Origin: an uncultured Candidatus Saccharibacteria bacterium | GTDB lineage: Bacteria; Patescibacteriota; Minisyncoccia; Phycocordibacterales; Zambryskibacteraceae | Length of the DNA: 64,000 nt | Direction of reading: 5' to 3' | Assembly: GCA_964347785.1 (NCBI GenBank) | Contig: CAYFZH010000001.1 | Coordinates: forward strand, 35,589-99,588 | Shown: positions 3,009 through 29,365 of the stretch, piece by piece | Position numbering within the stretch: the stretch's first letter is position 1 | How the letters are laid out: each line of letters opens with the position of its first letter | The notes under the pieces: generated by a model | Database searches by the model: none | Seen by the model: the letters and a program-made list of their open reading frames with translations, nothing else | Told to the model about the DNA's origin: nothing | Position numbers and translations under genes: made by a program

Positions 3009-5606
3009 ATGAAAAAGGACCATAAATCGGAGGACAAAATAATCGTACGAGGTGCTCGTACTCACAACCTTAAGAACATTACGGTTGAGATGCCGCGCAA
3101 CAAGATGGTGGTCTTTACAGGACTCTCGGGCTCGGGCAAGTCATCTCTTGCCTTCGATACCATCTTCGCCGAAGGTCAGCGTCGTTATGTCGAGTCGCTC
3201 TCAAGCTATGCGAGGCAGTTCCTCCGTCAGATGCAGAAGCCAGATGTAGACGAGATCGTAGGTCTCTCTCCGGCTATCTCTATCGACCAGAAGTCGCGCT
3301 CCAACAATCCTCGCTCGACTGTCGCCACCATCACCGAGATCTACGACTATCTGCGTATCCTCTATGCGCGTATCGGTAGACCACATTGTCTAGTCTGTGG
3401 GACGGAGATCAAGAAACTAAGTAACGAAGAGATCAAGAACTTCGTCTTGGAGAAAATTTCTGAATACCAAGCCAGTAAGCCGAAAGCCAAGAAGCTTGAG
3501 TTGCCAATCTACGCAGAGATCTTCTCTCCGATAGTGCGTGGGAGGAAGGGTGAGTACTACCAGCTTCTCTACGACCTCTTGGGTAAGGGTTACTCAGAAG
3601 TGCTTGTCGACGGCGAGAGGAAGTCTCTCCGTGAGCGTATTGCACTTACCAAGACCAAGAAGCATGAGATCTCTGTCCTCGTCGACTCTATCTCAGTAGA
3701 AGATTTTAAGAGTGATGAGAAGTCAGCCCATGAGCGTTTGAGTGAGGCGATAGAGAAGGCTGTGAGTGAGTCTGATGGACTCCTTGTCCTGAAGTTCAGA
3801 GACATGAGCTTGAAAGAGCAGAGTAAGGAAGAGTTCCTGATGTCTGCCAAGTGGGCGTGCCCCAAGGATGGCTTCTCCTTCCCCGAGATTGAGCCGAGAC
3901 TCTTCTCCTTCAACTCGCCTTACGGTGCGTGTCCGACTTGTAACGGCTTGGGGACCAAGTACCTCTTCGGTACAGAACCGTGTGAAGCTTGTGAGGGTAA
4001 GCGTCTGAGAGCAGAGGCTCTCCACGTGCTTGTCGGAGGCAAGAATATCGTCGACCTCACTGCCATGTCTATCAAGGAAGCAGATGAGTTTTTCAAGAAG
4101 CTCAAGCTTACTGCGAGAGAGAAAAATATTTCTAAAGTGGTGACCAAGGAGATTGAGGCACGACTCTCCTTCATGCTCAACGTGGGTATAGACTATCTCT
4201 CTCTCAGCCGTCGCGCACACACACTCTCTGGTGGTGAGGCTCAGCGTATCCGTCTTGCCTCACAACTTGGTTCTGGACTCGTGGGTGCACTCTACGTGCT
4301 CGACGAGCCGACTATCGGTCTCCACTCTAGAGACAACGACAGACTGATCCAGACCTTGCTCAATCTCCGCGACCTCGGCAACACCATCCTCATCGTCGAA
4401 CACGACGAGGACACTATCTATGCATCAGATTATCTCATCGATATAGGACCGGGGGCTGGTACGCACGGTGGTGAGGTTGTGGTGGCAGATTATCTCGACG
4501 ATCTCCTGACAGCTCCGAAGAACAAGAGCGGGTCTCTCACCCTTTCTTATCTGCGTGGTGAGACCAAGATAGATTTACCAGAGAAGCGTCGTGAGTCAGA
4601 GAAGGGGATGATCCAGATTAGAGCTGGGAAAATTTTCAATATCAAACACTTAAACGTCGACATCCCACTCCACAGACTCATCGTCGTGACTGGTGTCTCG
4701 GGCTCTGGTAAGTCCTCCTTCGTCTACGAGATCCTTTATAAAAACTTACAGGCTCGTCTCGATAGGCGATACAGAAGTGCACAGACTTATAACTGTCAGA
4801 GCTTCAATGGCTCAGAGTATCTGGGTCGAGCTATCATGATCGACCAGTCGCCCATCGGTCGCACTCCTCGCTCGAACCCCGCGACATATACGGGTGCGTG
4901 GACCTTTATCCGAGAGCTCTTCGCCGAGTCGTCTGAGGCGCGAGCGCGTGGTTGGAAGCCGAACAGGTTCTCCTTCAACGTGAAGGGTGGTAGGTGTGAG
5001 ACTTGTCAGGGTAACGGGATGATAGAGGTGGAGATGCACTTCCTCCCGACAGTCTATGTGCCTTGTGATGTCTGTGGTGGTAAGAGGTTTATGAAAGAGA
5101 CTCTGGAGGTGAAGTACAAGGGCAAGAATATCCACCAAGTGCTTGAGATGACTATCGAGGAGGCACTAAGCTTCTTCGAAGATATCCCAGCTATCTACGA
5201 CAGACTCAAGTCGATGAACGACGTGGGTCTCGGATACCTTGCACTCGGTCAGTCTGCGACTACTCTCTCTGGTGGTGAGGCACAGAGAGTGAAGGTGGCA
5301 TCAGAACTCTATCGTCCTCATGTGGAGAAGACGATCTATATCCTCGACGAGCCGACTATCGGTCTCCACTACGAAGATGTGAGAAAGCTCATCGAGATCC
5401 TCCAGAAGCTCGTGGACAAGGGCAACACCGTGCTCGTCATCGAGCACAATATGGATGTCATCAAGAGTGCAGACTATATCCTCGACATCGGTCCTGAGGG
5501 AGGTGATGGGGGAGGTGATCTTGTTGCCAAGGGTACTCCAGAAGAAGTGGCGGGAGCTGATACGCATACAGCAAAATATCTTAGGAAAGCTTTGAAGAAG
5601 AAATAA
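3009..5606 (+). CDS. uvrA: Excinuclease ABC subunit A (UvrA)
   Basis: 865 aa with two ABC ATPase modules (GLSGSGKSS; GVSGSGKSS), LSGGE signature motifs and zinc-finger cysteines. Confidence 0.95.
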
Positions 5607-5961: not shown

Positions 5962-7179
5962 ATGAAAAGTCAAGAGCTCAAGAATTTTAACTTACCAGAT
6001 GCGCCGGGGGTGTATTACTTCTTAGATAAAAAGGGGAAGATTTTGTATGTAGGCAAAGCAACTTCCTTGAAGGATAGGGTCAAGAGTTACTTCGCTCGAG
6101 ATATCTTGATGACACGTGGACCGAAGATCCAGAAGATGCTCGAGGATGCGGTGAGAGTCGAGTACAAGCAGACTGACTCGGTACTTGAGGCACTTATACT
6201 TGAGGCGAACGAGATCAAGCGACTTCAACCTCCTGCCAACTCCAAGGACAAAGATGACAAGAGTTACAACTTCGTCGTGATTACCAAAGAGGATTTCCCA
6301 CGGGTACTAATAAAACGCGGTAGAGAGTTAGAAACAAACACTATGATATATCATAGTGTCTTCGGTCCGTTCCCGAACTCGGGGGAACTCAAAGAGGCTT
6401 TGCGAATAGTCAGGAAGATTTTTCCCTTCAGAGATGAGAAGTGCAAGATCACTGATAAACACAAACCTTGCTTCAACGCACAGCTAGGTCTCTGTCCGGG
6501 ACCTTGTGCGGGATGGATTACGAAGACGGACTACAAGAAGCAGATTAGGAATATCAAAATGTTTCTCGAAGGCAAGAAGCCCAAGCTTATCAAGTCTCTA
6601 GAGCAAGAGATGAAAGCGTTTGCCAAGAAGCACGAGTTTGAGAAAGCGGATGAGATCAAGAAAAAGATTTTTGCCCTCGATCACATTCAAGATATCGCTT
6701 TGATAAAGGCTGACATTACGACCTACGACGAACGACCAACGACATTTAGAATTGAAGCTTATGACATCGCCCATCTCTCGGGTAAAGATGTGGTAGGGGT
6801 GATGACTGTGGTTGAGGATGGAGAGACTGCGAAGAGTCAGTATAGGAAATTTAAAATCAAGCTAGACAAGAACGACGATACCAAGAACCTGAGGGAAGTC
6901 CTCGAGAGACGTCTCAACCACAGAGAGTGGCGACTACCTGAGCTCATCGTTGTAGATGGAGGAGTGGGTCAGATCAACGTCGCGAAGAGTGTGCTCAAGG
7001 AGAGAGGTCTCAAGATTAATGTAGTCTCGGTGGTCAAGGATGATCGGCATAAGGCTCGAGAAATCTTGGACCTCAAGGATAAGACTCTCGAGAAAGCGAT
7101 CATCCTCGCCAATGCAGAAGCGCATCGCTTCGCCATCGGTTATCACAGGAAGCTCCGTGGGAAAGGATTTCGTATATAA
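5962..7179 (+). CDS. uvrC: Excinuclease ABC subunit C (UvrC), short form lacking the C-terminal (HhH)2 domain
   Basis: N-terminal GIY-YIG motif (GVYYF..GKILYVGKA), a Cys-rich segment, the UvrB-interaction region and an RNase H-like endonuclease domain. At 405 aa it is shorter than the typical ~600 aa. Confidence 0.85.
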   Translation: MKSQELKNFNLPDAPGVYYFLDKKGKILYVGKATSLKDRVKSYFARDILMTRGPKIQKMLEDAVRVEYKQTDSVLEALILEANEIKRLQPPANSKDKDDKSYNFVVITKEDFPRVLIKRGRELETNTMIYHSVFGPFPNSGELKEALRIVRKIFPFRDEKCKITDKHKPCFNAQLGLCPGPCAGWITKTDYKKQIRNIKMFLEGKKPKLIKSLEQEMKAFAKKHEFEKADEIKKKIFALDHIQDIALIKADITTYDERPTTFRIEAYDIAHLSGKDVVGVMTVVEDGETAKSQYRKFKIKLDKNDDTKNLREVLERRLNHREWRLPELIVVDGGVGQINVAKSVLKERGLKINVVSVVKDDRHKAREILDLKDKTLEKAIILANAEAHRFAIGYHRKLRGKGFRI

Positions 7180-20732: not shown

Positions 20733-21977
20733 ATGTTCGAAGACTTGTTCGCACTTTTCAAACACCCTTATTTCATCAAGGCTTTACGCATCTTCTGGTC
20801 TCTCTGGCCAGTGTGGGCACCTATCATCGCAGTCAAGGTTGCTTGGGAGTATTGGATGGACTATGTAAGACGCCTCTGGATACAGAAGAAGGGTTACCTC
20901 CTGCTTGAGATTAAGTTACCCAAAGACCAGCCCAAGAGTCCGGCGGCTATGGAGTTTGTCCTCCAAGGTATCTGGGAGAACGCTGGTATCTCTACTCCAG
21001 CAGATGCCTTCTGGGAAGGTAAGCTCCGTGAATGGTTCTCTCTCGAGATAGTGGCAGTGGGGGGAGAGGTGAGGTTCTTTATCTGGACCTTCCCTAGGTG
21101 GAAGAAGATTATCGAAGCGAGAATCTACGCCCAGTACCCAGGAGCGGAGGTCTATGAGGTCGACGACTATGCACTCAAGCTTCACTACGATCCTACTAAG
21201 GTAAGCATCTTTGCCGTCAATACTGAGCTCGTCAAGCCAGACGCGTATCCTATCAAGACATACATCGAGTATGAGCTCGACAAGAAGAAGGGAGATGAAC
21301 AAGAAGAGATTGTGGACCCTCTCACACCGGTGATCGAGTACCTAGGCACACTTGGACCAAGTGAGGTGGCGGGGATTCAGATTATGATCAGAGCTCATGC
21401 TTCCGAAGACTATATGTATGGTCGTCTGAGCAAGAAGAAGGACTGGCAGGGAGGTATCAAGGATGAGATCAAGAAGATGCTCAAGGAAGAGTCTCTGGTC
21501 GAGCAAGACAAGGACAAGCCAGCCAGCTTCCTCAACCTCACTAAGCTCCAGACCGACACGGTAAATGCTATCCAGAGGAACGCGGGCAAGCTCGCCTTCG
21601 ACACGATGATCCGCCTGCTCTACGTGGCACCCAAGGACACCTTCGAGAGTACGAGAGGGATGGGGATCATCGGCTCGATGCGCCAGTTCGGCTCGAGCAA
21701 TATGAACGGGATCAAGCCGAAGTTCTTCTCTACCACGCACGCATGGGAAGACTTCAACGACAGGACCAAGAGAGAGCGTCAGTCTACGTTTGTCGACGCT
21801 TACAAGAGGCGTTCCTTCTTCAGCACTCCGCACCAGAACTTGTTTGGCAAACCCTACATTCTCACTACAGAGGAGCTTGCTACACTCTTCCATCTCCCAG
21901 GAGCCGTCGCTACCACTCCGAGCCTTCGTCGTGCTCCAAGCAAGAAGGCCGAAGCCCCAGCCAATCTCCCTGTCTAG
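20733..21977 (+). CDS. Hypothetical protein (414 aa), N-terminal TM, translationally coupled to mltG
   Basis: ORF only. Its stop codon lies 2 nt before the mltG ATG. TAGAAT lies 6 nt upstream of the ATG. Confidence 0.5.
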   Translation: MFEDLFALFKHPYFIKALRIFWSLWPVWAPIIAVKVAWEYWMDYVRRLWIQKKGYLLLEIKLPKDQPKSPAAMEFVLQGIWENAGISTPADAFWEGKLREWFSLEIVAVGGEVRFFIWTFPRWKKIIEARIYAQYPGAEVYEVDDYALKLHYDPTKVSIFAVNTELVKPDAYPIKTYIEYELDKKKGDEQEEIVDPLTPVIEYLGTLGPSEVAGIQIMIRAHASEDYMYGRLSKKKDWQGGIKDEIKKMLKEESLVEQDKDKPASFLNLTKLQTDTVNAIQRNAGKLAFDTMIRLLYVAPKDTFESTRGMGIIGSMRQFGSSNMNGIKPKFFSTTHAWEDFNDRTKRERQSTFVDAYKRRSFFSTPHQNLFGKPYILTTEELATLFHLPGAVATTPSLRRAPSKKAEAPANLPV

Positions 21978-22899: not shown

Positions 22900-23307
22900 A
22901 TGAAAAAGTTCATGCTGTTCCTCGTACTGCTGGTATATGCCATCGGTGTGAATTTCTGTGGAAGCTGGCTTCTCAGTGGTCACTTCAGACTCACAGACAT
23001 CCGTAATCCTGGCGATGTCGTACTTCTGGTGGTGGAGACAATCATTCTCCTCATCTTTTGTAAGGGGAGCTGGGCAAATCATGAAATCCCGTTTTCTCGA
23101 ACGATCACTGTGGTCTTTGGCATTGCCGGGCTCATGGTCAGTAATTATCTCGCTATCGTGTTTGTCGACGGAGGTTTCTCTACGAGCATGGCGTTGGAGT
23201 GGTACTACTTCCGTTTGTACCTACTCATGATCCTGCCGGTGGCGTTTTTTGGTCATCACACCGGCACGGTCTGGGTGGGTAACCTGGGTTGCCCATCAAA
23301 AGTCTAG
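22900..23307 (+). CDS. Hypothetical 4-TM membrane protein (135 aa)
   Basis: SD AAGGAGG, hydrophobic helices and a downstream terminator. Confidence 0.5.
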   Translation: MKKFMLFLVLLVYAIGVNFCGSWLLSGHFRLTDIRNPGDVVLLVVETIILLIFCKGSWANHEIPFSRTITVVFGIAGLMVSNYLAIVFVDGGFSTSMALEWYYFRLYLLMILPVAFFGHHTGTVWVGNLGCPSKV

Positions 23308-23321
23308 TTGTGGTATCAAGT

Positions 23322-23352
23322 GGCACTGGAGAAATCCAGTGCCTTTCGTTTT
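23322..23352 (+). terminator. Rho-independent terminator ggcactgga-gaaat-ccagtgcc followed by TTTCGTTTT
   Basis: Hairpin followed by a T-tract after ORF 22900..23307. Confidence 0.65.
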
Positions 23353-23384
23353 GGAAAAATACGTTAACAGACTATACTCATTTC

Positions 23385-24521
23385 ATGAAAAAGGTTTTTG
23401 TTGGACTTTCTGGTGGGGTAGATAGCGCTGTGTCAGCGGCGCTACTACAGGAGCAGGGGTATGACGTCACGGGCGTCTTTATCCGTGCATGGCAACCGGA
23501 CTGGCTTCCTTGTACTTGGCGAGAGGAGAGACGAGATGCGATGAAGGTGGCTATCGCTCTCGGCATACCGTTCCTCTTCCTCGACCTTGAGAAGGAGTAC
23601 AAGCAGGAGGTGGTAGATAAGATGCTCGATGAGTACAAGAAGAACAGGACGCCGAACCCAGACGTGCTTTGTAACAGAGAGATCAAGTTCGGTCACTTCT
23701 GGAAGTTCGCGAAGGAGATGGGTGCAGATTTTATTGCAACTGGTCATTATGCGAGAGTCGCACATGATTCTACTCGAAAAAACGCGCTATCGTCGTCTGC
23801 TGACGACGCACGCTCCACTGAGTCCGGTGACGTTTTTTCTCTGCAGAATCATGTGCTCTTAGAAAGTTTTGATAAAGAGAAAGATCAGTCCTACTTCTTG
23901 TGGACTTTGACAAAAAATGATTTGGAACACGTTTTGTTCCCTGTTGGAGATTTACAAAAGTCTGAGGTAAGGAAGCTGGCGAAGAAATTCAATTTGCCTG
24001 TTGCAGAGAAGAAGGATAGTCAGGGGATCTGCTTCATGGGCAATGTTTCTATGGAGGAGTTTCTCTCGCACTTCATCGAGACTAAGTCAGGGAAAGTTTT
24101 GAACACTGACGGAGAGGTGATCGGCAAGCACAAGGGTCTCGTCTACTACACCATCGGTGAGCGACACGGCTTCGAGGTGACGAAGAAGAGTGCTACCAGT
24201 GGTCCCTTCTATGTTGTGGGGAAAGATGTTAAGAAAAATATTCTAGTCGTCTCTGATAAGGAGTCAGAGATAGTGGAACTCTCGCCACGCAAGATCGCTC
24301 TCACCAAGGCAAGTTGGTCTCAAGTGCCAGATGTACCCAACCTCACTGCGCGCATTCGTTATAGGGGAGAGAAGCTACCTTGCAAACTCTCGCTTAAGGG
24401 TAAGAGACTTATGGTCGAGTTTGCTGAGCCGGTCCGCGGACTCTCGCTCGGGCAGTCTATCGTCTTCTATTCTGATGAAATCTGTCTCGGAGGAGCAGTG
24501 ATGGATAAAATAGTTTCTTGA
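23385..24521 (+). CDS. mnmA: tRNA-specific 2-thiouridylase MnmA
   Basis: PP-loop SGGVDSAV, catalytic Cys residues and KDQSYFL. TATACT lies 6 nt upstream of the ATG. The ORF-track start at 23289 is an upstream extension. Confidence 0.85.
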   Translation: MKKVFVGLSGGVDSAVSAALLQEQGYDVTGVFIRAWQPDWLPCTWREERRDAMKVAIALGIPFLFLDLEKEYKQEVVDKMLDEYKKNRTPNPDVLCNREIKFGHFWKFAKEMGADFIATGHYARVAHDSTRKNALSSSADDARSTESGDVFSLQNHVLLESFDKEKDQSYFLWTLTKNDLEHVLFPVGDLQKSEVRKLAKKFNLPVAEKKDSQGICFMGNVSMEEFLSHFIETKSGKVLNTDGEVIGKHKGLVYYTIGERHGFEVTKKSATSGPFYVVGKDVKKNILVVSDKESEIVELSPRKIALTKASWSQVPDVPNLTARIRYRGEKLPCKLSLKGKRLMVEFAEPVRGLSLGQSIVFYSDEICLGGAVMDKIVS

Positions 24522-24534
24522 TATACTTAGGGCT

Positions 24535-25374
24535 ATGTTAAGCGAGGCAGAAGATATCATTATAGTTAAGGAGAATGGCAAGCATGAGAGCTTCGACTCA
24601 GAGAAGCTTCGCTTCTCACTTCTGCACTCGGGTGCCTCAGAAGAATCTGTGGAGGAGGTGATGAGTCGTGTAGTCCCAGAGCTCAAGAGTGGTATGACCA
24701 CTCAAGATATCTACTCGCACGCCTTCGCTGTGCTCGAAGGGTTGAACAAGAAAGTGGCAAGGAGTTACTCACTTCGCCGAGCAGTGATGCAACTTGGACC
24801 CTCTGGCTTTCCCTTCGAGGACTTCGTAGCAGAGATCTTGCGTGCCAAAGGTTTCGAGTGCAAGACTCGTCAGACTGTGCTCGGTGGTTGCGTCCCACAC
24901 GAAGTGGACGTGGTCGCTTACAATGAGAAGAAGCTCATCATGGTCGAGGCGAAGTTCCACAACGAGCTTGGTATCAAGTCCGATATCAAGGTGGCACTCT
25001 ATATCAAGGCACGCTTCGATGATATAAGGGAAAACGTCTTCAACTACGGTAGAGACAACCGCAAGGTGACAGACAGCTGGCTTATCACCAATACCAAGTT
25101 CTCCTCTACTGCTATCCACTACGGCGAGTGCAACAACATGACCCTTATCGGATGGAACTATCCTGAGCATGGTAGTCTCCAAGATATGATCGAGAGTGAG
25201 CGGCTACACCCTCTCACTTGTCTCACCACCCTTTCTGATACAGAGAAGAAGAAACTTCTCGAGAGTGGGGTCGTACTCTGTAGTAATATTAAGTCTGATC
25301 CGGAGGTGCTGAAGAGACTTCTGGGGCAAGAATTTATCATCGAACCTGTGCTTAATGAAATAAACGAATTATGA
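24535..25374 (+). CDS. ATP-cone domain fused to a PD-(D/E)xK (Mrr-like) nuclease-fold domain
   Basis: N-terminal ATP-cone (IIVKENGKHESFDSEKLRFSL). Central candidate D..ExK motif (HEVDVVAY..LIMVEAKFH). TATACT lies 7 nt upstream of the ATG. Confidence 0.6.
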   Translation: MLSEAEDIIIVKENGKHESFDSEKLRFSLLHSGASEESVEEVMSRVVPELKSGMTTQDIYSHAFAVLEGLNKKVARSYSLRRAVMQLGPSGFPFEDFVAEILRAKGFECKTRQTVLGGCVPHEVDVVAYNEKKLIMVEAKFHNELGIKSDIKVALYIKARFDDIRENVFNYGRDNRKVTDSWLITNTKFSSTAIHYGECNNMTLIGWNYPEHGSLQDMIESERLHPLTCLTTLSDTEKKKLLESGVVLCSNIKSDPEVLKRLLGQEFIIEPVLNEINEL

Positions 25375-25823
25375 CCTTAAACCTTTTGACCTCGGGACCC
25401 TTTGTATATCTGGTAGTAGCTCTTCTCCTCGGTGCCGTCTTGGGACTCGAGAGAACTCTGGCTCACAAGACTGCCGGTGTGCGTACTTACGGACTAGTCT
25501 CGATGGGAGCGTGCCTCTTCGTCACTCTTGCTCGGATAGTGAGTCCAGCTGTCGACTTGTCTGCTCCGGGACAGATGTATATCTTGCAAGGGTTGATCAT
25601 CGGGATTGGGTTCGTCGGCGGAGGAGCTATCCTCCATGCACGAGATCATCACCAAGACCACACCTCGGGTCTCACTACCGCGGCGGGTCTCTGGGTGGCA
25701 GCAGGTATCGGCGCTACTGTGGGTTATGGACTCATGCAACTAGCCCTCTTTACCACTCTGGCTACACTAGTTGTCTTTACTCTTTTCTGGTTTATCGAAC
25801 ACAGAGTTCTAGCAGACAAATAA
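25371..25823 (+). CDS. mgtC: MgtC/SapB-family membrane protein
   Basis: MgtC N-terminal motif (GAVLGLERTLAHKTAGVRTYGLVSMGACLF). 4-nt ATGA overlap with the upstream gene. Confidence 0.7.
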   Translation: MTLNLLTSGPFVYLVVALLLGAVLGLERTLAHKTAGVRTYGLVSMGACLFVTLARIVSPAVDLSAPGQMYILQGLIIGIGFVGGGAILHARDHHQDHTSGLTTAAGLWVAAGIGATVGYGLMQLALFTTLATLVVFTLFWFIEHRVLADK

Positions 25824-25838
25824 TCCCTTCTCCTATGT

Positions 25839-26426
25839 ATGAGCGATAAGATTCTGGAGCTCAAGAAGATTGAGGAAGAAGTACTCGTTCTCAAGGATTC
25901 TCCCCTCTACTCTCTACGTGTGGACAATAGTTATCTCCCTGTTACAGGAGAGGGGAGTTGTGATGCACGAATTATGTTTGTCGGCGAAGCTCCGGGGGAG
26001 AATGAGGCGAAGACGGGGAGACCCTTCTGTGGGCGATCTGGCAAACTTCTCGACACCCTTCTTGAGTCTGTGGGTGTACGGCGCGAAGATGTCTATATCA
26101 CGAACATCGTGAAGGACCGTCCACCCAAGAACCGTGACCCTCTTCCAGAGGAGATTTCTCTCTACGCACCCTTCCTCGATCGGCAGATAGAGATCATTAA
26201 GCCTAAGGTGGTAGTCACTCTCGGACGCTTCTCTATGATGTATGTGATGAGTCGTTACGGATTTGAGAGTGAGCTTGCTCCTATAGGTGAGCTTCATGGC
26301 AAAGTATTCCAAGGTCAGACCTTTAAACTCATCCCGCTCTATCACCCAGCAGCCGCTATTTATAATCAGAAACTTCTAGAAACTCTTCGGAGTGATTTCC
26401 AAATTTTGAAAAGAGTGGTAATCTAG
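25839..26426 (+). CDS. Uracil-DNA glycosylase, family 4
   Basis: UDG family-4 motifs (GEAPGENEAKTGRPFCGRSG, HPAA). Confidence 0.8.
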   Translation: MSDKILELKKIEEEVLVLKDSPLYSLRVDNSYLPVTGEGSCDARIMFVGEAPGENEAKTGRPFCGRSGKLLDTLLESVGVRREDVYITNIVKDRPPKNRDPLPEEISLYAPFLDRQIEIIKPKVVVTLGRFSMMYVMSRYGFESELAPIGELHGKVFQGQTFKLIPLYHPAAAIYNQKLLETLRSDFQILKRVVI

Positions 26427-26459
26427 TGGATTAGACATGTTCCCAAGGAGGGTCTGTCT

Positions 26460-26687
26460 ATGTGTGTGCATCCACCATCGCTTCTACGGCGTACCGAAAC
26501 CCCTGGTATTACGCGGTGTCTCGAATGTGGTGACACGCACAAGTGCGATCACCCTCAGTCTCGACAGACGGCAGGTCACGAGATCACCGTTTGCGCTGCT
26601 TGCGACGAGATCACGGCGTTCGACAGGGTCGTGCTCGTCGCACAGCCTTCGAGGATGGTTTACCCACCAAGCCATCTTCACCACTGA
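26460..26687 (+). CDS. GC-rich micro-protein with a CxxC-x17-CxxC zinc ribbon (75 aa), tentative
   Basis: Strong SD AAGGAGGG 7 nt upstream of the ATG, and a terminator immediately downstream. The region is about 60% GC with ORFs open in several frames, so a structured RNA cannot be excluded. Confidence 0.4.
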   Translation: MCVHPPSLLRRTETPGITRCLECGDTHKCDHPQSRQTAGHEITVCAACDEITAFDRVVLVAQPSRMVYPPSHLHH

Positions 26688-26693
26688 TTCCAC

Positions 26694-26735
26694 CGGCACC
26701 CCACGCGCGAAGCGTCGGGTGCCGTTCTATTTTTA
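26694..26735 (+). terminator. Rho-independent terminator (compound hairpin ccggcaccc..gggtgccg followed by TTCTATTTTT)
   Basis: Hairpin followed by a T5 tract just upstream of alaS. Confidence 0.6.
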
Positions 26736-26760
26736 GTGCCGAAATGCTATATTTCTAAGC

Positions 26761-28023
26761 ATGAATTCAAAAGAAATAAGAAAACGATTTGCAGATTTTT
26801 TTGAAAAGAGGGGACACGCTGTCATCCCTTCCGCTTCTCTCGTGCCTGATCAGAACGACAAGTCAGTACTCTTCAACACTGCAGGGATGCAACCTCTCCA
26901 ACCTTACCTTATGGGTGCAGAGCATCCGAAGGGTAAGCGCTTGGTCAACATTCAGAAGTGCGTCCGCACTCAAGATATCGAAGAAGTGGGGGACAAGACG
27001 CATGACACCTTCTTCGAAATGCTTGGTAACTGGTCTCTCGGTGATTATTTCAAAGAAGAGGCGATCAAGTGGAGTTTCGAGCTCCTTACTTCCAAGGAAG
27101 AGGGTTTCGGTCTCGATCCAAAGAGACTTTATGTCACCGTCTTCGAAGGAGATGATAACGCTCCTAAGGATACAGAGGCCTTCGAGATTTGGAAGAAGTA
27201 TATGCCAGAGAATCGTATCTATTTCCTCGGGGCAGATAAGAACTGGTGGAGTGTGGGACCCAATGGCCCATGTGGTCCTGATACAGAGATGTACTACGAC
27301 GTGACTCCAGAAGGTCTCGGTGATCTTAGTTTGGAGGAGTTCAAGAAGGTGGACGACGAGCAGAAGGTGGTCGAGATCTGGAACGACGTCTTCATGCAAT
27401 ATGAGAAGAAGGATGGCAGTATTGTAGGCAGGCTTTCTCAACAGAATGTCGATACCGGTGCCGGTCTTGAGCGTCTGGTTATGGCTCTGCAGAACAAGGA
27501 CAACATCTTCGATACAGATCTCTTTGCACCGCTCATGGCGATACTGCCGAAGGAGAAGGACCTCAAGTCCGCTCGAGTGGTCGCCGACCACATGCGTACA
27601 TCCGTTTTCATGATTGCTGATGGTGTAACTCCATCGAACACCGATAGGGGTTATATCCTCCGTCGACTATTACGCCGTTCGTATGTCCATGCGAGAAAAC
27701 TGGGAGCTAGTCCAGAAGTTCTTGAGTCTGTAGCAGAGCTCGTGGTGTCGCATGAGAGTTATAAGGGTCTCTACAGCTTCAACCCTGATACCATAAAGAT
27801 AATCAGAGAAGAAATAGAGAAGTTCAAGAAAGCTCTTGAAGCTGGACTAAAGCAAGTGGAGAAAGGAGCCGATCCCTTCACCCTCTTTACCAGTTATGGT
27901 TTGCCACTCGAGATTATCGAAGAGGTAACAGCAGTAGATCGGGAGAAGTTTGCGAAACAACTGGCTGAACACAAACAAATGTCCAGTGTGGCGGGTGAGC
28001 AGAAATTTAAAAGTACGTTATAA
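26761..28023 (+). CDS. alaS: Alanyl-tRNA synthetase, catalytic/tRNA-recognition N-terminal fragment only (420 aa; no editing or C-Ala domains)
   Basis: AlaRS N-terminal motifs (FFEKRGH, FNTAGM, KCVRT.DIE, LGNWS.GDYFK). The ORF ends with a TAA stop and the next gene is unrelated. Confidence 0.85.
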   Translation: MNSKEIRKRFADFFEKRGHAVIPSASLVPDQNDKSVLFNTAGMQPLQPYLMGAEHPKGKRLVNIQKCVRTQDIEEVGDKTHDTFFEMLGNWSLGDYFKEEAIKWSFELLTSKEEGFGLDPKRLYVTVFEGDDNAPKDTEAFEIWKKYMPENRIYFLGADKNWWSVGPNGPCGPDTEMYYDVTPEGLGDLSLEEFKKVDDEQKVVEIWNDVFMQYEKKDGSIVGRLSQQNVDTGAGLERLVMALQNKDNIFDTDLFAPLMAILPKEKDLKSARVVADHMRTSVFMIADGVTPSNTDRGYILRRLLRRSYVHARKLGASPEVLESVAELVVSHESYKGLYSFNPDTIKIIREEIEKFKKALEAGLKQVEKGADPFTLFTSYGLPLEIIEEVTAVDREKFAKQLAEHKQMSSVAGEQKFKSTL

Positions 28024-28030
28024 TTTGTCT

Positions 28031-29365
28031 ATGCCAAAAAATATCGACGATGTAATCTTGCCAGAAAGGAGGAAAAGCATCAGGAATATCCCCATCCCTG
28101 AAGGTCGGAGCAAAAAGGGTGAGAAAGTTGCTCTCGACGGTGTTAAGCGTCCTGCACGAGTAGCAGAAGATAGAGAAGAAGTTTCTCACGAAGCAGAACG
28201 TCACGAGTCATCTCGTCGTACACACAATCCCAAGAAGAAGATCTGGCTCGCTTCAGGTTTCGCCATCTTGGTACTCATCTTCTCTGTCCTCTCAATGTTT
28301 AAGGGTGGCACTCTCTCCTATGTGCCTAAGTCGGTAGATCTCAAGTTTGCAAACGACATCTTCTCTGCGGTCAAGACTGGTGAGGATAAGCTCACTTATA
28401 GTGTGGTCAAGCTCTCTGGGGATAAGGGAGTGAGTGTCCCTGCTACGGGAGAACAGGCGGTGAGTCGTAAGGCTTCCGGTATGATCGTGGTCTACAACGA
28501 CGCTTCAGCCGAACCTCAGAAGTTGGTCGAGAACACTCGTTTCGAGTCCCCAACAGGCAAGATCTACCGTATCGCTACAGCTATCACTATCCCCGGCAAG
28601 AAGACTGTGGCGGGTAAGTCTCAACCAGGGAGTATTGAGGTCAAGGTCAACGCAGATGTCGCTGGTGCTGAATACAACTCGGAGCCTACTGACTTTACCG
28701 TCCCCGGGCTCAAGGGATCTCCTCGTTACACCACTATCTATGCTCGTTCCTCCACTGCTATCTCTGGAGGGTTTGTGGGCAAGGAGAAGGCTGTCGCTCC
28801 AGCAGACTTAGAGAAGGCTAAGGCAGAGCTCAAGACTTCCCTCAGCCAAGGACTTCTAGCCAAGGCGCAAGCCGAGGTGCCGTCTGAGTTTATCCTCTTC
28901 CCCACACTCTCATCCGTCAGTTTTGAGGACCTACCACAGAGCAATACTGGTAGTGGGAGCACTGTGACGGTCAATCTCCGCGGTCACCTATACGGTATTA
29001 TGTTTAAGAAGAACGACCTCTCCCACGAGCTAGGCAAGAAGAAGGCCTCTCTGGCGAAGGATGATTCTGTTGAGCTCGTCTCCTTCGATTCTCTAGAACT
29101 AGCCTTCGCCGGTGTCGCACCAACCAACCTTCTCTCTCTCAATGAGATTAGCTTCAAGGTTACTGGAGAAAGTAAGCTCGTCTGGCGTACTGACGAGGTG
29201 GCTCTCAAGTCAGATATCCTAGGACGCAAGAAGTCTGAACTCTCTACTATCCTGAAGAATTACCCTACAATCTCATCCGCCTCTGCCACACTTAGACCAT
29301 TTTGGAAGACGACTTTTCCTCTAGAGGGTGATAAGGTGTCCGTGAAGAAATTAGAAATCAAATAA
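28031..29365 (+). CDS. Hypothetical membrane-anchored protein (444 aa; charged N-terminus, one TM, large beta-rich ectodomain)
   Basis: The ORF-track start at 27950 is out of frame. The ATG at 28031 lies 7 nt after the alaS stop. TAATG overlap with infA. Confidence 0.5.
   Translation: MPKNIDDVILPERRKSIRNIPIPEGRSKKGEKVALDGVKRPARVAEDREEVSHEAERHESSRRTHNPKKKIWLASGFAILVLIFSVLSMFKGGTLSYVPKSVDLKFANDIFSAVKTGEDKLTYSVVKLSGDKGVSVPATGEQAVSRKASGMIVVYNDASAEPQKLVENTRFESPTGKIYRIATAITIPGKKTVAGKSQPGSIEVKVNADVAGAEYNSEPTDFTVPGLKGSPRYTTIYARSSTAISGGFVGKEKAVAPADLEKAKAELKTSLSQGLLAKAQAEVPSEFILFPTLSSVSFEDLPQSNTGSGSTVTVNLRGHLYGIMFKKNDLSHELGKKKASLAKDDSVELVSFDSLELAFAGVAPTNLLSLNEISFKVTGESKLVWRTDEVALKSDILGRKKSELSTILKNYPTISSASATLRPFWKTTFPLEGDKVSVKKLEIK

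Follow-up and report, generated by a model that had tools for sequence, protein, structure and literature searches.

An ATP-cone joined to a PD-(D/E)xK nuclease: a conserved prokaryotic family of predicted nucleotide-gated endonucleases

Here we describe a gene in a 64,000-nucleotide stretch of DNA from an uncultured Candidatus Saccharibacteria bacterium (assembly GCA_964347785.1, contig CAYFZH010000001.1, positions 35,589 to 99,588 of the forward strand; the whole stretch is referred to as the window, and coordinates are counted from its first letter). Its product, which we call the cone nuclease, carries an N-terminal ATP-cone, a PD-(D/E)xK nuclease domain and a C-terminal domain of the helix-hairpin-helix (HhH) type. 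A known sensor is here combined with a known class of effector, a combination that is present in databases under generic names and whose biology is unstudied. The protein is probably a catalytically competent nuclease that is regulated through its cone, and its role very probably lies in housekeeping or stress and not in defence. The explanation that best accounts for the whole, put forward at somewhat less than even confidence, is an adenine-nucleotide-gated endonuclease that would act on the cell's own nucleic acid for turnover and salvage. We infer nuclease activity, substrate, ligand, sign of regulation and physiological role alike from sequence. The gene and its parts are laid out as follows:

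24535..25374, + strand: cone-nuclease open reading frame (ORF), 279 residues plus stop, with ATP-cone, PD-(D/E)xK nuclease and HhH domains
24559..24780, + strand: ATP-cone domain, a predicted ATP/dATP sensor, residues 9-82 (PF03477)
24793..24819, + strand: near-invariant linker LGPSGFPFE, residues 87-95; its last residue, E95, is the first acidic one of the nuclease site
24805..25149, + strand: PD-(D/E)xK (Mrr_cat) nuclease domain, residues 91-205 (PF04471)
24898..24909, + strand: motif H122-E123-V-D125, the 'PD' position of the catalytic site
24946..24954, + strand: motif E138-A-K140, the 'ExK' of the catalytic site
25162..25371, + strand: AF1548-like_C domain (PF22357) with a helix-hairpin-helix-type fold, residues ~210-279

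An initial annotation, made from the letters of the window and its reading frames, had begun the gene at 24522. The ORF it described is real; position 24522, however, is where a TATACT box opens in the gap ahead of the start codon, which is at 24535. The ATP-cone and the nuclease fold that it had recognised both stand, at a level far above chance, while the C-terminal HhH domain had gone unseen. The cone matches Pfam above the curated threshold (residues 9-82, E 1.3e-6, 29.3 bits against a cut-off of 25.8), as does Mrr_cat (residues 91-205, E 3.5e-7, 30.8 bits against 21); matches below threshold are to other minimal PD-(D/E)xK families, namely Hjc, UPF0102/YraN and DUF234. The peptide ...CVPHEVDVVAYNEKKLIMVEAKFHN... 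spans residues 119-143 and the stretch HEVDVVAY..LIMVEAKFH, in which a D..ExK arrangement had been proposed, is found at residues 122-142. A protein of identical sequence (P0001) is present in public assemblies.

The AlphaFold model of the protein is of high confidence (pLDDT 93.2, pTM 0.88). Its cone has a β-hairpin lid over a four-helix bundle, and its nuclease domain has the restriction-endonuclease-like α-β-β-β-α-β core. When 48 diverse homologues were aligned (34-49% identical to the window protein, with 43% mean column identity), E95, E123, D125, E138 and K140 were each found in all 48, which upholds the proposed arrangement and extends it by two acidic residues. Also invariant are G15, G88, G91, F94, G117, R160, D163, N186, W207 and P226. 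C119, H122 and C199 are each kept in at least 45 of the 48, H122 in exactly 45. E95 stands at the start of the helix formed by residues 93-104, the first core helix of the model, and the extra acidic residue of the PD-(D/E)xK superfamily is usually located at the start of this helix. D125, E138 and K140 align with D38, E51 and K53 of the Archaeoglobus fulgidus protein AF1548, which were predicted to be catalytic in a 2007 GOS paper (PMC1821046). Because the active site is invariant, we predict a working Mg2+-dependent endonuclease. The initial annotation had staked its case on support for the fold and on conservation of the catalytic residues among homologues; the hidden Markov model of the fold scores above threshold and the residues do not vary.

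To our knowledge, ATP-cones are known experimentally in two settings only, the ribonucleotide reductases (RNR) and the repressor NrdR, and the characterised proteins of both kinds all couple their activity to the ATP/dATP pool through oligomerisation. The cones of RNR and NrdR translate the ATP/dATP ratio into control of the supply of deoxynucleoside triphosphates (dNTPs). It is the NrdR cones that the cone of the window protein most resembles, by structure and by profile comparison. The family profile matches the NrdR and NrdD cones of the PDB at E ~8e-4, with designed helical repeats scoring above them; a phmmer search of the PDB with the cone alone returned designed helical repeats only, driven by a low-complexity-like 'LKRSGASEE..' stretch, and was uninformative. 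Residues I10, K12, E18, F20, K24 and L25 are spaced exactly as V51, K53, E59, F61, K65 and L66 of E. coli NrdR, which lie over and around the adenine (bioRxiv 10.1101/2025.03.28.645925), this being a match of pattern and spacing only. Across the homologues K12 is kept in 47 of 48, G15 in all and K24 in 46, and position 20 is F or Y throughout. Because these presumed pocket residues are kept, binding of ATP or dATP is predicted.

The likeness to NrdR invites a reading in which the protein is a non-catalytic regulator whose nuclease fold and HhH domain merely bind operator DNA under ATP/dATP control. Inactivated PD-(D/E)xK folds are known as DNA binders, and the annotated ORFs of the window included no NrdR, a weak point given that about 30 of the 61 ORFs were scanned. 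NrdR itself (~150 residues), however, has an N-terminal Zn-ribbon for DNA binding and no catalytic domain, whereas the cone of the window protein is preceded by only eight residues and followed by nuclease and HhH domains, with no Zn-ribbon; the NCBIfam NrdR model gives 14 bits against a cut-off of 124.65. None of the loci inspected showed a linkage to RNR genes, and the invariance of E95, E123, D125, E138 and K140 over deep divergence would be unexpected of a mere DNA binder. We consider this reading highly improbable, and a pure NrdR-like regulator was rejected on the invariance of the catalytic residues.

The nuclease half had been called Mrr-like, which holds for the catalytic domain. The type IV enzyme Mrr, though, has a winged-helix reader domain (Mrr_N) at its N-terminus where the window protein has an ATP-cone, with no Mrr_N match, and the C-terminal domains also differ. 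The true family is that of AF1548: the nuclease core, the specific C-terminal helical domain and significant similarity to AF1548 are all present, and the cone nuclease is a member. Residues 97-263 match PDB entry 1Y88 (AF1548) at E 3e-27, a structural-genomics 'protein of unknown function' that shares the nuclease core and the C-terminal domain. The latter is predicted to bind DNA without sequence specificity. A Holliday-junction resolvase was also considered and rejected, the Hjc model being below threshold and Geoglobus encoding a separate Hjc three genes from its cone nuclease.

The 1Y88 chain begins to align at the equivalent of F97, where it has a methionine, and it is without the ATP-cone, the LGPxGFPFE linker and E95. 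A 265-residue Archaeoglobus protein that is 99% identical to the AF1548 fragment (P0408, locus L146, 6001-6798) carries the cone, as do nearly all full-length archaeal relatives (260-273 residues) found by searching with that fragment. On these grounds an internal codon was probably taken as the start of the AF1548 gene model. The one solved structure of the family, which dates from 2004, would then miss the sensor domain, the invariant linker and a catalytic glutamate.

The distribution and neighbourhood analyses proposed at the outset place the family in Patescibacteria, Bacteroidota, Chlamydiota and Archaea. A set of 5.8 billion proteins contains 3766 homologues at E<=1e-3; the best 120 of these are 70-82% identical to the window protein, and the named ones among them are Patescibacteria (Zambryskibacteria, Minisyncoccia). 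An exhaustive HMMER search of 1.84 billion cluster representatives gave 428 clusters (50% identity) at E<=1e-30, almost all of 265-300 residues and aligning end to end, which argues for a fixed three-domain architecture. At least 595 cone nucleases were found in metagenome contigs by pattern scans with an alignment of 12 sequences. Beyond Patescibacteria, three-domain members come from Pontibacter and many species of Chitinophaga, both cultured Bacteroidota, from the chlamydia Criblamydia and from Archaea, namely Ferroglobus placidus, Geoglobus ahangari, Archaeoglobaceae, Korarchaeota and Pacearchaeota. Database names for homologues include 'ATP cone domain-containing protein', 'restriction endonuclease' and 'ATPase'. 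A search of the available literature found no paper on the fusion of an ATP-cone with an Mrr or PD-(D/E)xK domain and no experiment on any member; the sole relevant text was the 2007 GOS paper, in which AF1548 was predicted to be a restriction endonuclease (PMC1821046).

The genes next to the cone nuclease in the window had been named as mnmA, mgtC and a UDG, and Pfam matches all three:

23289..24521, + strand: mnmA (tRNA 2-thiouridylase), the conserved 5' neighbour (Pfam tRNA_Me_trans, E 2.5e-73, match from residue 34, the true start being probably near 23385)
25371..25823, + strand: gene for an MgtC-family membrane protein (Pfam MgtC, E 8.9e-31), whose start overlaps the nuclease stop by 4 nucleotides (ATGA)
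25839..26426, + strand: UDG-superfamily glycosylase, the conserved 3' neighbour beyond a variable slot (Pfam UDG, E 4.6e-35)

The overlap of start and stop suggests that the MgtC gene is co-transcribed and translationally coupled with the cone nuclease. With the window protein as the single query we collected 54 species-representative genomes of Patescibacteria, in which the gene belongs to a co-directional block of leuS, a sigma-like gene, a gene of unknown function, mltG, mnmA, cone nuclease, variable slot, UDG and alaS. In 45 of the 54 loci mnmA is directly upstream, and in 51 it is no more than four genes away. In 21 loci the variable slot is occupied by a Cas4-like PDDEXK_1 nuclease, in 10 by an HD/YfbR-like 5'-deoxynucleotidase, in 10 by MgtC and in 6 by MGMT. 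The window is core chromosome, with uvrB, uvrA, uvrC, ddl, pyk, leuS, rpoA, dnaK, asnB, mraY, ftsW, murG and gltX. Over 34 shared loci, mean identity to the window protein is 57.3% for the cone nuclease, 53.5% for mnmA, 53.3% for alaS, 60.7% for UDG and 41.8% for mltG. Because the cone nuclease diverges as slowly as mnmA and alaS, it is under housekeeping-grade constraint. We read the gene as chromosomal and vertically inherited.

These observations bear directly on defence, which the initial annotation had offered alongside stress as a possible role. An anti-phage or abortive-infection effector would sense, through its cone, a (d)NTP pool that phage had distorted or made collapse and so free a non-specific nuclease, much as Can2, Card1 and NucC are triggered by cyclic oligonucleotides. 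The pairing of a sensor with a non-specific PD-(D/E)xK nuclease fits such a role, and the nuclease domains of Can2, Card1, NucC, Cap4 and Avs are among the structural neighbours. PADLOC gave one match, to PDC-S02, weak and below threshold (E 7e-4), and one archaeal locus lies beside an MjaI-type restriction-modification pair. The resemblance to Can2, Card1, Cdn1, NucC and Cap4, all ligand-activated PD-(D/E)xK effectors, is one of outline: Can2, Card1, NucC and Cap4 sense second messengers through CARF or SAVED domains or the NucC pocket, whereas the cone nuclease has an ATP-cone for what is presumed to be a primary metabolite, ATP or dATP, with no CARF or SAVED match in Pfam and no CRISPR or CBASS neighbourhood. 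Type II restriction enzymes have a methyltransferase alongside, whereas the neighbours here are mnmA, MgtC, UDG, mltG and alaS; no methyltransferase, immunity gene or defence-island neighbour was found among the larger ORFs of the window that were scanned (about 30 of the 61). Restriction genes of the Mrr type are sporadic and mobile, whereas the cone nuclease keeps a fixed place in a housekeeping block in 54 genomes, diverges as slowly as its neighbours and has one stable architecture in both prokaryotic domains. By tblastn, none of 50,697 phage records and only 2 of 72,556 plasmids carry the gene, and pattern scans yielded no confirmed copy among 2.9 million viral contigs. PADLOC and PHROGs between them gave only sub-threshold or RNR-cone matches, with no defence or phage family assigned. 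A defence role is therefore very unlikely, and of the earlier suggestion it is the stress part that fits the contexts seen outside Patescibacteria.

The initial annotation had further proposed a leaderless promoter, which comparison across loci backs:

24519..24527, + strand: extended -10-like box TGaTATACT, overlapping the mnmA stop codon, with the hexamer ending 7 nucleotides before the ATG

The gap between mnmA and the ATG of the cone nuclease is 13 nucleotides long, and no Shine-Dalgarno sequence is suitably spaced from the start codon. Once starts had been adjusted by alignment, 41 of 51 orthologous Patescibacteria loci showed a box of the form TATAAT, TATACT or GATAAT that ends 6-9 (mostly 6) nucleotides before the ATG, often accompanied by an upstream TG. 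With naive start calls the box precedes 34 of 56 cone-nuclease genes, against 48 of 534 (9%) other ORFs of the same loci. A generic sigma-70 scan, which requires a -35 hexamer, reported no promoter upstream of the gene. Taken together, the conserved box supports a transcript that would be leaderless, its start being placed by sequence. A second candidate leaderless gene lies in the same block: an ORF of 414 residues (20733-21977, + strand), without a Pfam match and conserved in 48-49 related loci, has a -10-like box right before its start in 21 of 48.

Outside Patescibacteria the gene keeps different company. Among 87 loci, mostly Bacteroidota-like, 79 have downstream sequence, and in 30 of these a β-CASP/RMMBL metallo-β-lactamase (MBL) nuclease of ~457 residues directly follows the cone nuclease (within three genes in 41). 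Tandem universal stress proteins (Usp), often in 2-5 copies, are found upstream in 28 of the 87. Hsp20, PFK, 2-hydroxyacid dehydrogenase, P-type ATPases (14 loci) and MgtC with DUF4010 also recur in the Bacteroidota-type loci. Two plasmids, from two phyla, carry a tightly packed cassette of four genes, encoding the cone nuclease, the MBL/β-CASP nuclease, a member of the thymidine phosphorylase family and a ribose-phosphate pyrophosphokinase:

L142, 1972-6597: four-gene cassette of Pontibacter actiniarum, plasmid NZ_CP021236
L143, 6995-11602: four-gene cassette of Criblamydia sequanensis, plasmid NZ_LK031773

The Criblamydia cassette is flanked by phosphoketolase, glycogen phosphorylase (GlgP), acetate kinase and a P-type ATPase, and a phosphorylase-like gene is downstream of the cone nuclease in seven further loci. 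The Bacteroidota islands resemble in composition the low-oxygen-activated lxa locus of Burkholderia cenocepacia, which contains universal stress proteins, an α-crystallin, a β-CASP 'metal-dependent RNase', a sugar kinase, acetate kinase and a cation ATPase (PMC3721108, PMC6127331). An ATP-cone nuclease is not among the genes described for lxa, and the analogy is one of setting only. Two short proteins without Pfam matches also adjoin the nuclease in Bacteroidota-type loci, one of 137 residues directly upstream in 13 (for example L105, 4577-4990) and one of 84 residues ending in CCGGH directly downstream in 7 (for example L118, 5136-5390).

In Archaea the closest neighbour, no more than 3 nucleotides away or overlapping, is CorA in Ferroglobus; in Archaeoglobus it is an MscS channel, and in Geoglobus a permease-Usp fusion. 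The gene is also seen in divergent orientation to the RNA polymerase operon. Membrane cation transporters and channels are recurrently encoded by genes that abut or overlap the cone nuclease, across domains: MgtC in Patescibacteria (window 25371-25823), MgtC with DUF4010 and P-type ATPases in Bacteroidota-type loci, and CorA, MscS and amino-acid-permease-Usp fusions (Geoglobus and a related archaeon) in Archaea, examples outside the window being at L144 4958-6001, L146 5193-6035 and L060 2790-5045. This adjacency may reflect a link with Mg2+/ATP homeostasis.

Two further roles on the cell's own nucleic acid draw on the same neighbourhoods. The first is a DNA-repair endonuclease that would incise damaged or mismatched DNA, or glycosylase intermediates, with the cone limiting cutting to times when dNTPs are at hand for resynthesis. 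A UDG lies 1-4 genes downstream in 43 of the 54 Patescibacteria loci, MGMT occupies the slot in six, Chitinophaga has a PolX-like gene directly after the cone nuclease, and a purine DNA glycosylase (a Korarchaeota locus) and the Hjc of Geoglobus are near the archaeal genes. HhH domains are typical of repair proteins and the slow divergence noted above is equally what repair would predict. These repair neighbours are nevertheless clade-specific, the dominant partner in Bacteroidota and Chlamydiota being an RMMBL-type β-CASP nuclease amid genes of stress and energy metabolism, and the protein has no lesion-recognition domain. Its structural similarity to NucS/EndoMS reflects only the common PD-(D/E)xK core, the N-terminal domain and PCNA motif of that enzyme both being absent. 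Repair is a serious but minority possibility.

The second is a nuclease directed at RNA, which would work with the β-CASP RNase in the turnover of RNA and ribosomes under stress, possibly in connection with Mg2+/ATP homeostasis, its HhH domain binding structured RNA. It would account for the RMMBL domain of the β-CASP partner, whose lxa counterpart is annotated as a metal-dependent RNase, and for the cassette enzymes of the thymidine-phosphorylase and Prs-like kinds, which could handle ribonucleotides; the recurrent Mg2+ and cation neighbours (MgtC, CorA, P-type ATPases) and the tRNA-related genes mnmA, alaS and leuS of Patescibacteria also fit. Most PD-(D/E)xK enzymes and (HhH)2 domains, however, work on DNA, the nearest structural relatives are all DNases, and the synteny with tRNA genes is limited to one clade. 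An RNA target is possible but unlikely.

The reading that we prefer is turnover and salvage of the cell's own nucleic acid, for the recurrence of a second nuclease, the nucleotide-catabolic partners and the stress-island setting all point to it; that specific role is one that we advance tentatively, as possible and a little below an even chance. According to this model, the N-terminal cone would bind ATP or dATP and switch the enzyme on or off, probably through its oligomeric state as in NrdR and RNR. The PD-(D/E)xK core (E95, E123, D125, E138 and K140) would act as a Mg2+-dependent endonuclease, and the C-terminal HhH domain would anchor it on nucleic acid, on account of its fold most likely duplex DNA and without sequence specificity. 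The substrate would be the cell's own nucleic acid rather than foreign DNA, so that its cleavage would be coupled to the adenine-nucleotide or dNTP pool. The cone nuclease would cut first, and a partner exonuclease (the β-CASP enzyme in Bacteroidota and Chlamydiota, the Cas4-like enzyme in Patescibacteria) would trim the fragments to mononucleotides. These would then be recycled, under energy or nutrient limitation, by the thymidine-phosphorylase-like and Prs-like enzymes or by the HD 5'-deoxynucleotidase. By analogy with RNR, our guess is that ATP would turn the switch on and dATP turn it off, which would suit a salvage enzyme.

A number of observations weigh against this model. The second basic residue of the cone 'KR' motif is never basic in the family, position 13 being A, S, G, T or E, a departure that may mean a ligand preference unlike that of RNR and NrdR; the cones of RNR (NrdA, NrdD and the NrdB of Leeuwenhoekiella) regulate nucleotide reduction, whereas that of the window protein, lacking this residue, would regulate cleavage. 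The RMMBL 'RNA-specificity' domain of the β-CASP partner points to RNA and the HhH domain to DNA. Only about nine loci, a minority, have the four-gene cassette, and the archaeal contexts are variable and give no nuclease partner. The synteny in Patescibacteria could be phylogenetic inertia with no functional link, and UDG and MGMT as neighbours speak as much for repair as for salvage.

Several features of the window lie apart from the cone nuclease. uvrB (654-2669), uvrA (3009-5606) and a short uvrC (5962-7179, 405 residues) are consecutive on the + strand. The alaS ORF (26761-28023, + strand) encodes only 420 residues and covers positions 1-434 of the 552-position model of the catalytic domain. 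It overlaps with the unrelated ORF that comes next (27950-29365), which has a weak match to the GlxA β-barrel. The short alaS clusters with its counterparts in 45 related loci, and the clade seems to conserve a minimal AlaRS that lacks the editing and C-terminal domains. The 334-nucleotide gap between UDG and alaS (26427-26760, + strand) has a GC content of 56%, against 49% for the window, and folds far better than shuffled sequences (z -4.77 on the + strand, -2.65 on the - strand); its end, near 26696-26737, is formed by a GC stem and then a T-run. Rfam gives no match up to E<=1 and nhmmer no homologue among ~143 loci (L001-L143); the gap is a candidate for an unannotated structured RNA or an alaS leader.

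Were the cone nuclease merely an ordinary constitutive nuclease, the finding would shrink to routine annotation. If its cone is a working sensor, this conserved family would extend the ATP/dATP control logic to the cleavage of nucleic acid. It has thousands of members in both prokaryotic domains and an apparently fixed genomic position across many Patescibacteria. The culturable carriers (Chitinophaga, Pontibacter, Ferroglobus and Geoglobus), the small size of the protein and the cone-less core structure 1Y88 make the family testable. For the biology of Patescibacteria, which have very limited nucleotide synthesis, it represents a strongly conserved, unstudied enzyme that adjoins genes of repair and nucleotide recycling. 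This raises the further possibility, speculative and on balance unlikely, that the cone nuclease serves as the gated first enzyme in a conserved, undescribed 'self-cannibalising' route of nucleic-acid catabolism, which would be opened when the adenylate or dATP pool indicates a shortage of energy or nucleotides. If that were true, nucleic-acid degradation would stand as a third output of the ATP-cone beside nucleotide reduction (RNR) and transcription (NrdR), and in Patescibacteria the cone nuclease would have become a core gene with a leaderless promoter of its own.

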